From Escherichia coli (GTDB lineage Bacteria > Pseudomonadota > Gammaproteobacteria > Enterobacterales > Enterobacteriaceae), in NCBI RefSeq assembly GCF_003334765.1, contig NZ_QOWT01000149.1: DNA of 217 nucleotides; one strand, written 5' to 3'. The stretch's first letter is position 1. Every line of letters begins with the position of its first letter. The notes under the pieces were generated by a model, which had not been told where the DNA came from, made no database searches, and saw nothing but the letters and a program-made list of their open reading frames with translations. The position numbers and the translations under genes are program-made. Positions 1 through 217 of the stretch are shown here, in pieces.

Positions 1-63
1 CCGGACCATCTGATAGTCGGTGGCAGCCAGGTTTTCTCCTTTGCGGAACACGGTCTGCTTTAA
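1..63 (+). CDS. yeeS: 3' end of a RadC-like (JAB/MPN-domain, YeeS/YfjY-family) protein; 5' end lies upstream of the window
   Basis: Frame 1 reads without stops from position 1 to TAA at 61-63, giving PDHLIVGGSQVFSFAEHGLL*. This matches the C-terminal pattern I recall for RadC-family proteins (DH-L/I-I-V/I-G ... S-F-A-E-x-G-L/W-L/I). The symbol is assigned by synteny with the downstream DUF987 gene, not by sequence identity; the paralogs yfjY and ykfG cannot be excluded. Only 20 codons are visible. Confidence 0.75.
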   Translation, partial: PDHLIVGGSQVFSFAEHGLL

Positions 64-64
64 C

Positions 65-91
65 CCGTCACCGTCACCACCACATCACACC
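65..91 (+). repeat. C/A-rich short tandem repeat tract in the intergenic spacer (CCGTCA x2, then CAC/CA units)
   Basis: Direct reading: CCGTCA at 65-70 and 71-76, followed by CCACCACATCACACC at 77-91. The tract is almost devoid of G and T. Function, if any, is unknown. Confidence 0.4.
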
Positions 92-117
92 TGTTTTCAC
101 TTTTATCTTCTGTCTTC

Positions 118-122
118 AGAGG
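118..122 (+). promoter_or_regulatory. Shine-Dalgarno / ribosome-binding site for the downstream DUF987 gene
   Basis: AGAGG at 118-122 lies 9 nt upstream of the ATG at 132-134, which is acceptable spacing for base pairing with the 16S rRNA anti-SD. Confidence 0.55.
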
Positions 123-131
123 TATCACACC

Positions 132-217
132 ATGAAAATCATCACCCGTGGTGAAGCCATGCGTATTCACCAACAACATCCGACATCCCGTCTTTTTCCG
201 TTCTGTACCGGTAAATA
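132..217 (+). CDS. yeeT: 5' end of a DUF987 / YeeT-family small protein of unknown function (about 73 aa in full-length homologs); 3' end lies downstream of the window
   Basis: ATG at 132-134 is preceded by the AGAGG SD and is the first canonical start in this frame. The frame is open to the window end, giving MKIITRGEAMRIHQQHPTSRLFPFCTGK plus a partial codon. This matches from memory the N-terminus of E. coli YeeT (MKIITRGEAMRIHQQHPTSRLFPFCTGKYRWHG...). The paralog ypjJ cannot be excluded from this fragment alone. Confidence 0.85.
   Translation, partial: MKIITRGEAMRIHQQHPTSRLFPFCTGK

Follow-up and report, generated by a model that had tools for sequence, protein, structure and literature searches.

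A 217-nt Escherichia coli sequence assigned to the junction of a yeeS-type RadC-like gene and a yeeT-type DUF987 gene in an island accessory operon

The window (the whole stretch of E. coli DNA that was analyzed, 217 nt, read on one strand) contains the ends of two genes and the spacer between them (Table 1). Translation of positions 1–63 in frame +1 yielded PDHLIVGGSQVFSFAEHGLL followed by the TAA stop, and translation from the ATG at 132 in frame +3 yielded MKIITRGEAMRIHQQHPTSRLFPFCTGK up to the window end. In exact copies of the window, the annotated feature 'JAB domain-containing/RadC family protein' stops at 63, and the feature 'DUF987 domain-containing protein' begins at 132. A preliminary description, made from the letters of the sequence, had placed a RadC-like 3′ end, a 68-nt gap, and a DUF987 gene on one strand; its coordinates and gap length turned out to be exact. 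The program-listed open reading frames 20–154 (+) and 60–179 (−) are out of frame with both real genes and were left unsupported. With high confidence, we assign the window to the boundary of a yeeS-type RadC-like JAB gene and a yeeT-type DUF987 gene inside a conserved accessory operon (CP4-44 subtype) of E. coli integrative islands with P4-like integrases.

Table 1. Features of the 217-nt window and their coordinates.
Feature	Position	Strand	Remarks
RadC-like JAB gene (yeeS type), 3′ end	1–63	+	last 20 codons and TAA at 61–63
Intergenic spacer, 68 nt, CP4-44 subtype	64–131	+	
CCGTCA tandem hexamer (two copies)	65–76	+	junction alignments
Candidate weak hairpin CUUCUG-UCUU-CAGAGG, which would sequester the yeeT Shine–Dalgarno sequence	107–122	+	folding
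Shine–Dalgarno-like AGAGG	118–122	+	9 nt before the yeeT ATG; kept in the K-12 and MB06231 copies
DUF987 gene (yeeT type), 5′ end	132–217	+	ATG and first 28 codons of a 73-residue protein

The family assignment of the upstream gene was established with the full-length protein of an exact copy. It matched Pfam PF04002 at model positions 2–121 of 121 (1.7e-44), NCBIfam TIGR00608 (149.6 bits; cutoff 133.85), and PDB 2qlc, a RadC homolog of known structure (3.3e-25). All three agree with the RadC-like call made beforehand. The tail contained in the window (residues 139–158) has 11 identities in 20 positions with the C-terminus of 2qlc. The catalytic JAMM motif (residues 107–120) is encoded upstream, outside the window; its HxHx7Sx2D pattern is intact (H107-N-H109-x7-S117-x2-D120) and invariant in five paralogs. 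RadC/JAB domains occur in mobile elements (PMC5512222). By analogy with characterized relatives, the protein would act either as a protease or in nucleic-acid processing, and this role is disputed. LfgB (YfjY), the RadC/JAB paralog of CP4-57, is a protease that degrades the antitoxin MqsA (PMC10846083), whereas Iyer et al. proposed nucleic-acid processing, not proteolysis, for RadC-type JAB domains (PMC5512222). The RadC/JAB gene has decayed in some copies; in ERP001 (L001:19595-20063) it is frameshifted, yet its final 63 nt match the window exactly.

The DUF987 protein of the exact copies is WP_000692323.1. At full length (73 residues), it matched Pfam PF06174 over model positions 1–65 of 65 (2.2e-39), and it also matched phrog_14887 (2.7e-38). 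For the fragment present in the window, a DUF987 profile built only from members that share less than 55% identity with YeeT was run against the six-frame translation. The 28-residue fragment scored 31.5 bits (E = 4.7e-11 over six frames) at profile positions 1–28, and it did so in frame +3 only. The similarity of 132–217 to DUF987, on which the preliminary description had staked its reading beforehand, was thus borne out. Taken with the annotation and the RadC matches, the agreement exceeds chance by a wide margin.

The start of yeeT could be fixed as well. Diverse DUF987 homologs start at a Met aligned with ATG 132, and no start codon lies in frame within the 207 nt of open frame that precede it; therefore, ATG 132 is the true start, and an N-terminally extended yeeT gene was ruled out. 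Database proteins of 206–249 aa with a C-terminal DUF987 (P0121, P0126, and P0127) are chimeras, in which an unrelated upstream open reading frame runs in the yeeT frame across the RadC 3′ end and the spacer. Forms of 92–98 aa are C-terminal read-throughs.

DUF987 is a small family, with 178 representatives (E ≤ 0.001) among 1.84 billion, many of them fragments or chimeras. Members were found in Citrobacter, Salmonella, Klebsiella, and Providencia. The predicted model of YeeT (pLDDT 96.8) is a small domain of a β-α-β unit and a long β-hairpin. It had no structural neighbor in the PDB, and AFDB50 returned family members only. Four distant DUF987 genes (35–43% identity; L016–L019) were located on short metagenomic contigs. 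Their neighbors are dCMP deaminase, YuA_Gp49-family, and Zn-ribbon genes, and nothing like RadC or the other module proteins was seen beside them on these contigs. With such unrelated neighbors, the RadC–DUF987 adjacency is a trait of the enterobacterial module rather than of the family as a whole, and the finding suggests that other settings, possibly phages, also harbor DUF987. A conserved neighbor was also sought as a clue to DUF987 function; the four distant homologs gave no partner beyond the enterobacterial module.

We inspected six independent exact-copy loci (YL03, ERP001, D8, GF43, TUM9803, and CPF6). A common gene order on one strand was found in all of them: (DUF905), DUF932, antirestriction, RadC/JAB, DUF987, YeeU/CbeA, CbtA, DUF5983 (YeeW), DUF957, and often DUF4942. 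The order is also kept in three K-12 modules, in three long-spacer E. coli copies of more divergent sequence, of which one is on an IncF plasmid and one is unannotated, and in a Citrobacter-type homolog of 70% identity. The gene upstream of RadC matched the Pfam Antirestrict family (PF03230, 1.2e-35). When compared with the PDB, its product matched ArdB (2wj9, 1.3e-99) and KlcA (2kmg, 2.5e-20). An ArdB/KlcA-like gene had been anticipated at this side, which was correct; the anticipated distance of 1–2 kb was not, as the gene, present in 6/6 loci, lies directly beside the RadC gene, preceding it by 16 nt.

Downstream, the first gene of an exact copy is an antitoxin gene (CbeA_antitoxin, PF06154, 5.1e-53) and the second a toxin gene (CbtA_toxin, PF06755, 3.5e-58). 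This type IV pair begins 74 nt past yeeT in one exact copy and was located less than 1 kb downstream in all six loci, so that the toxin–antitoxin locus predicted just downstream was indeed there. That the pair would always be the next two genes did not hold, because in some copies a 214-aa open reading frame (phrog_5162) separates DUF987 from the antitoxin gene (ERP001, L001:20372-21016; MB06231, L015:3295-3939). With this frame present, the pair still begins within ~0.7 kb. One record labels the 214-aa product 'antitoxin of toxin-antitoxin stability system'. In the Citrobacter-type module, a 166-aa open reading frame lies between CbeA and CbtA (L011:5640-6140). No NCBIfam model matched DUF987, CbeA, CbtA, or the antirestriction protein, and no PADLOC model matched any protein of the module.

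The closest known system is the CP4-44 yeeS-yeeT junction of K-12 (b2002-b2003, followed by cbeA-cbtA-yeeW), which has the same genes, strand, and order and belongs to the same long-spacer subtype. The two sequences are 93% identical at the nucleotide level over the full length of the window. Their spacers (68 nt in the window and 62 nt in K-12) align throughout with few SNPs, save for one 6-nt indel, the second CCGTCA. This second hexamer is missing from K-12 CP4-44 and from the other aligned long-spacer copies and represents a small length polymorphism. The K-12 element differs further in its yeeS, which is N-terminally truncated to 148 aa (L003:14309-14755), and in carrying yeeR upstream in place of the antirestriction gene.

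CP4-57 lfgABCDE (yfjX-yfjY-ypjJ-yfjZ-ypjF) and CP4-6 yafX-ykfG-ykfH-yafW-ykfI display a paralogous five-gene order. The preliminary description had given the orders yeeS-yeeT-cbeA-cbtA for CP4-44 and yfjY-ypjJ-yfjZ-ypjF for CP4-57, both correctly. The RadC/JAB proteins of these paralogs are 71–82% identical to that of the window's gene, and their DUF987 proteins 58–66%. At the DNA level, similarity to the window is detectable in the coding parts only (~80%). They are the only members with experimental data, namely protease activity of LfgB, MqsA repression, and toxin–antitoxin activity. In contrast to the 68 nt of the window, the RadC–DUF987 spacer is 8 nt in both CP4-57 (yfjY-ypjJ) and CP4-6 (ykfG-ykfH), so short that the ribosome-binding site shares bases with the stop codon (TGAGGTATTACATG). 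The Citrobacter-type spacer is 11 nt long. By its spacer length, the window therefore belongs to the CP4-44 subtype only, and not to those of CP4-57 and CP4-6. The junction module as such is already described and abundantly annotated in E. coli. The preliminary description had called it known, not novel, in keeping with its annotation in thousands of E. coli genomes and with the work done on the K-12 paralogs.

The long spacer was analyzed for signals of its own. Judged from the alignment of junctions, the window's ...CAGAGGTATCACACCATG looks like a compact-subtype site that is preceded by an insertion of ~57 nt (64–120; compare L004:23867-23880 and the L005 junction). This insert was found in the present junction context only (11,912 places, 4742 genomes), which ruled it out as an independent mobile mini-element. 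A scan of the plus strand of the spacer gave no sigma-70 promoter or terminator consensus. A terminator-like hairpin on the minus strand, inside the yeeT coding sequence, was at chance level. The Rfam scan of the window (E up to 10) returned a best E of 0.15, well below gathering, and its sub-threshold matches (eukaryotic snoRNA and Mu-gpT-DE) are noise.

These results bear on the possibility that the spacer is a functional cis-regulatory RNA, either a Shine–Dalgarno hairpin or a small RNA, with the insertion acquired in the CP4-44 subtype. The CUUCUG/CAGAGG hairpin spans the yeeT Shine–Dalgarno sequence, and both the insertion itself, relative to the compact junctions of the other subtypes, and its wide occurrence would fit such a role. 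However, the predicted folding was weak (z = −1.7 to −2.1), and 8–12 of 200 shuffled sequences folded equally well. A pyrimidine-rich tract 5′ of a purine-rich Shine–Dalgarno sequence pairs trivially. The long-spacer relatives vary in sequence, length (56–86 nt), and fold, with z-scores of −1.1 and +0.2 for divergent spacers, and conservation is lower in the spacer than in the coding sequence on either side. The lack of an Rfam match and of a promoter consensus points in the same direction. On account of the weak z-scores and the failure of divergent spacers to preserve the structure, we did not adopt the sequestering hairpin, and we consider a regulatory RNA in the spacer quite improbable.

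Another alternative concerns YeeT itself. It could be a small antirepressor, or it could modulate the toxin–antitoxin pair or the RadC-like protease as a third component, in which case the junction would join a protease and its partner. YeeT, YkfH, and YpjJ were put forward as possible antirepressors through relaxed BLAST matches with the Fels-1 antirepressor FsoA; in the same work, none of the three gave a positive result with the dicB promoter (PMC10448788). A modulator would be consistent with the neighborhood, for the DUF987 genes of enterobacterial islands always lie between RadC and the toxin–antitoxin pair. Five-gene constructs that include the DUF987 gene act like the toxin–antitoxin pair alone (PMC5371832). 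We hold such a function of YeeT to be unlikely. The boldest combination, in which the ~57-nt insertion is regulatory (for example, a Shine–Dalgarno hairpin that uncouples DUF987 and toxin–antitoxin translation from the RadC gene) and DUF987 is a new small modulator of the protease or of the type IV toxin–antitoxin pair, seems very unlikely to us.

The distribution of the junction was determined by megablast of the window against 5426 complete E. coli genomes. The window is 100% identical in at least 28 E. coli chromosomes. Related copies were found in 4797/5426 genomes at 12,927 places, with a median of 3 and up to 15 per genome. Exact copies occupy at least four chromosomal contexts. In YL03, the exact copy occupies the CP4-44 site of K-12, beside tmaR/yeeA/sbmC. 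The three other sites are an island beside nanC/fim (ERP001), an island beside the kps capsule genes (D8, GF43, and TUM9803), and an island at tRNA-Ser(GGA) beside ghrA (CPF6). With this range of contexts, the 217-nt window cannot name one locus. It is possible that identical copies exist in Shigella or Escherichia relatives.

These counts also weigh on whether a plasmid or a different enterobacterial species, rather than an E. coli chromosomal island, could be the source of the window. Relatives do occur on the conjugative IncF plasmid pC5-A (88.5%) and on a Klebsiella oxytoca plasmid (93.5%), and DUF987 is present in the four further genera named above. On the other hand, every one of the at least 28 matches of 100% is an E. 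coli chromosome, in a search of E. coli genomes, and of the 12,927 places, which all come from complete E. coli genomes, only 6 are plasmid-borne. The best match in the plasmid collection (95.9%) belongs to a record of 4.9 Mb, evidently a chromosome. An origin outside E. coli chromosomal islands is therefore extremely improbable, and we proceed with the chromosomal one. Several PLSDB 'plasmid' records with the junction (H32, H41, and H45) are 4.8–4.9 Mb long and, at this size, evidently chromosomes misfiled as plasmids; others, of 0.8–1.4 Mb, are suspect.

The borders of the surrounding island were mapped in one genome, CPF6 (L010). A 19-bp direct repeat, TGGCGGTGAGGGGGGGATT, was found at two positions. 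The copy at 48579 is the 3′ end of tRNA-Ser(GGA); the copy at 4386 lies ~500 bp upstream of a tyrosine recombinase gene (4922–6130), which is followed by DUF3987 and AlpA-like HTH genes. Between the repeats lies an island of ~44 kb that carries McrBC and IS elements as cargo and has the module at its integrase-distal end. The tRNA/att boundary that the preliminary description had suggested looking for was thus found in this genome. The module is absent from ~12% of complete E. coli genomes. Its multiple copies, variable sites, and absence from part of the genomes, together with the integrase/att island of CPF6, support the claim that the DNA was horizontally acquired. GC content, which had been proposed as a further check, did not discriminate (0.49 for the window, 0.53–0.54 for the module, and 0.51 for the neighboring core).

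The same description had spoken of a prophage or island module. 'Cryptic prophage' is the historical K-12 label for the CP4 elements. Of the two terms, 'island' stood and 'prophage' in the strict sense did not. The annotation of the 44-kb CPF6 island and of the other inspected loci shows no genes for capsid, tail, or terminase, and since no verified phage genome carries the junction, 'island' fits better. Among 50,697 phage records, the junction had one match only, the UNVERIFIED_ORG contig OR844783.1. This contig (L013), which comes from a phage preparation, is an unannotated 3.2-kb sequence of coverage 2.2. It has an 86-nt spacer with an AGGAGG Shine–Dalgarno sequence, the most divergent of the long spacers, and its junction is most likely carried-over host DNA.

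Defense cargo was observed on module-bearing elements. The ERP001 island (L001:1-9946) contains a MADS locus and a phosphorothioate-dependent restriction enzyme, the McrBC genes of CPF6 are at L010:13859-17195, and plasmid pC5-A encodes an AbiEii toxin (L014:7332-8205). The antirestriction cassette and defense systems therefore travel on the same element. A comparable clustering of antirestriction, toxin–antitoxin, and small uncharacterized genes on one strand is known from the anti-defense/establishment clusters in the leading regions of conjugative plasmids (PMC11541004). The likeness to the island cassette is in gene content only. Although the island module is also present on a conjugative IncF plasmid at ~88% identity, the cassette stands at the integrase-distal end of chromosomal islands.

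With the above results in hand, a working of the cassette can be proposed. By analogy with CP4-57 lfgABCDE, whose spacer is 8 nt and not 68 nt, a promoter lying 5′ of the antirestriction gene would drive the transcription of yeeS and yeeT together with the other genes of the cassette. Since the 68-nt spacer has no promoter or terminator signal, yeeT would be translated from its own AGAGG site. In the subtypes with a spacer of 8–11 nt, RadC and DUF987 translation is probably coupled. ArdB/KlcA proteins relieve type I restriction. CbtA blocks FtsZ/MreB polymerization, and CbeA counteracts it. Interaction of CbtA-family toxins with FtsZ and their neutralization by CbeA-family antitoxins have been reported (PMC5371832), and lfgABCDE was described as an operon of CP4-57, with the LfgB protease and MqsA repression (PMC10846083). 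From these published roles of ArdB/KlcA, LfgB, and CbtA/CbeA family members, the cassette would most likely help the island first to become established in a new host and later to persist there.

As a discovery, the junction carries little weight, for it is annotated in thousands of genomes and its K-12 paralogs have been studied. The one real gap in the module is DUF987, a small family of narrow distribution whose fold is predicted with confidence but has no match outside the family. The junction is unusable for placing a read or for naming one island, and since identical copies lie at several sites, several per genome, it is a likely source of assembly and mapping ambiguity. What the 217 nt do provide is a reliable flag of a P4-integrase-type island, from which an ArdB/KlcA gene can be predicted just upstream and, in the 1 kb that follows, a CbeA/CbtA pair.
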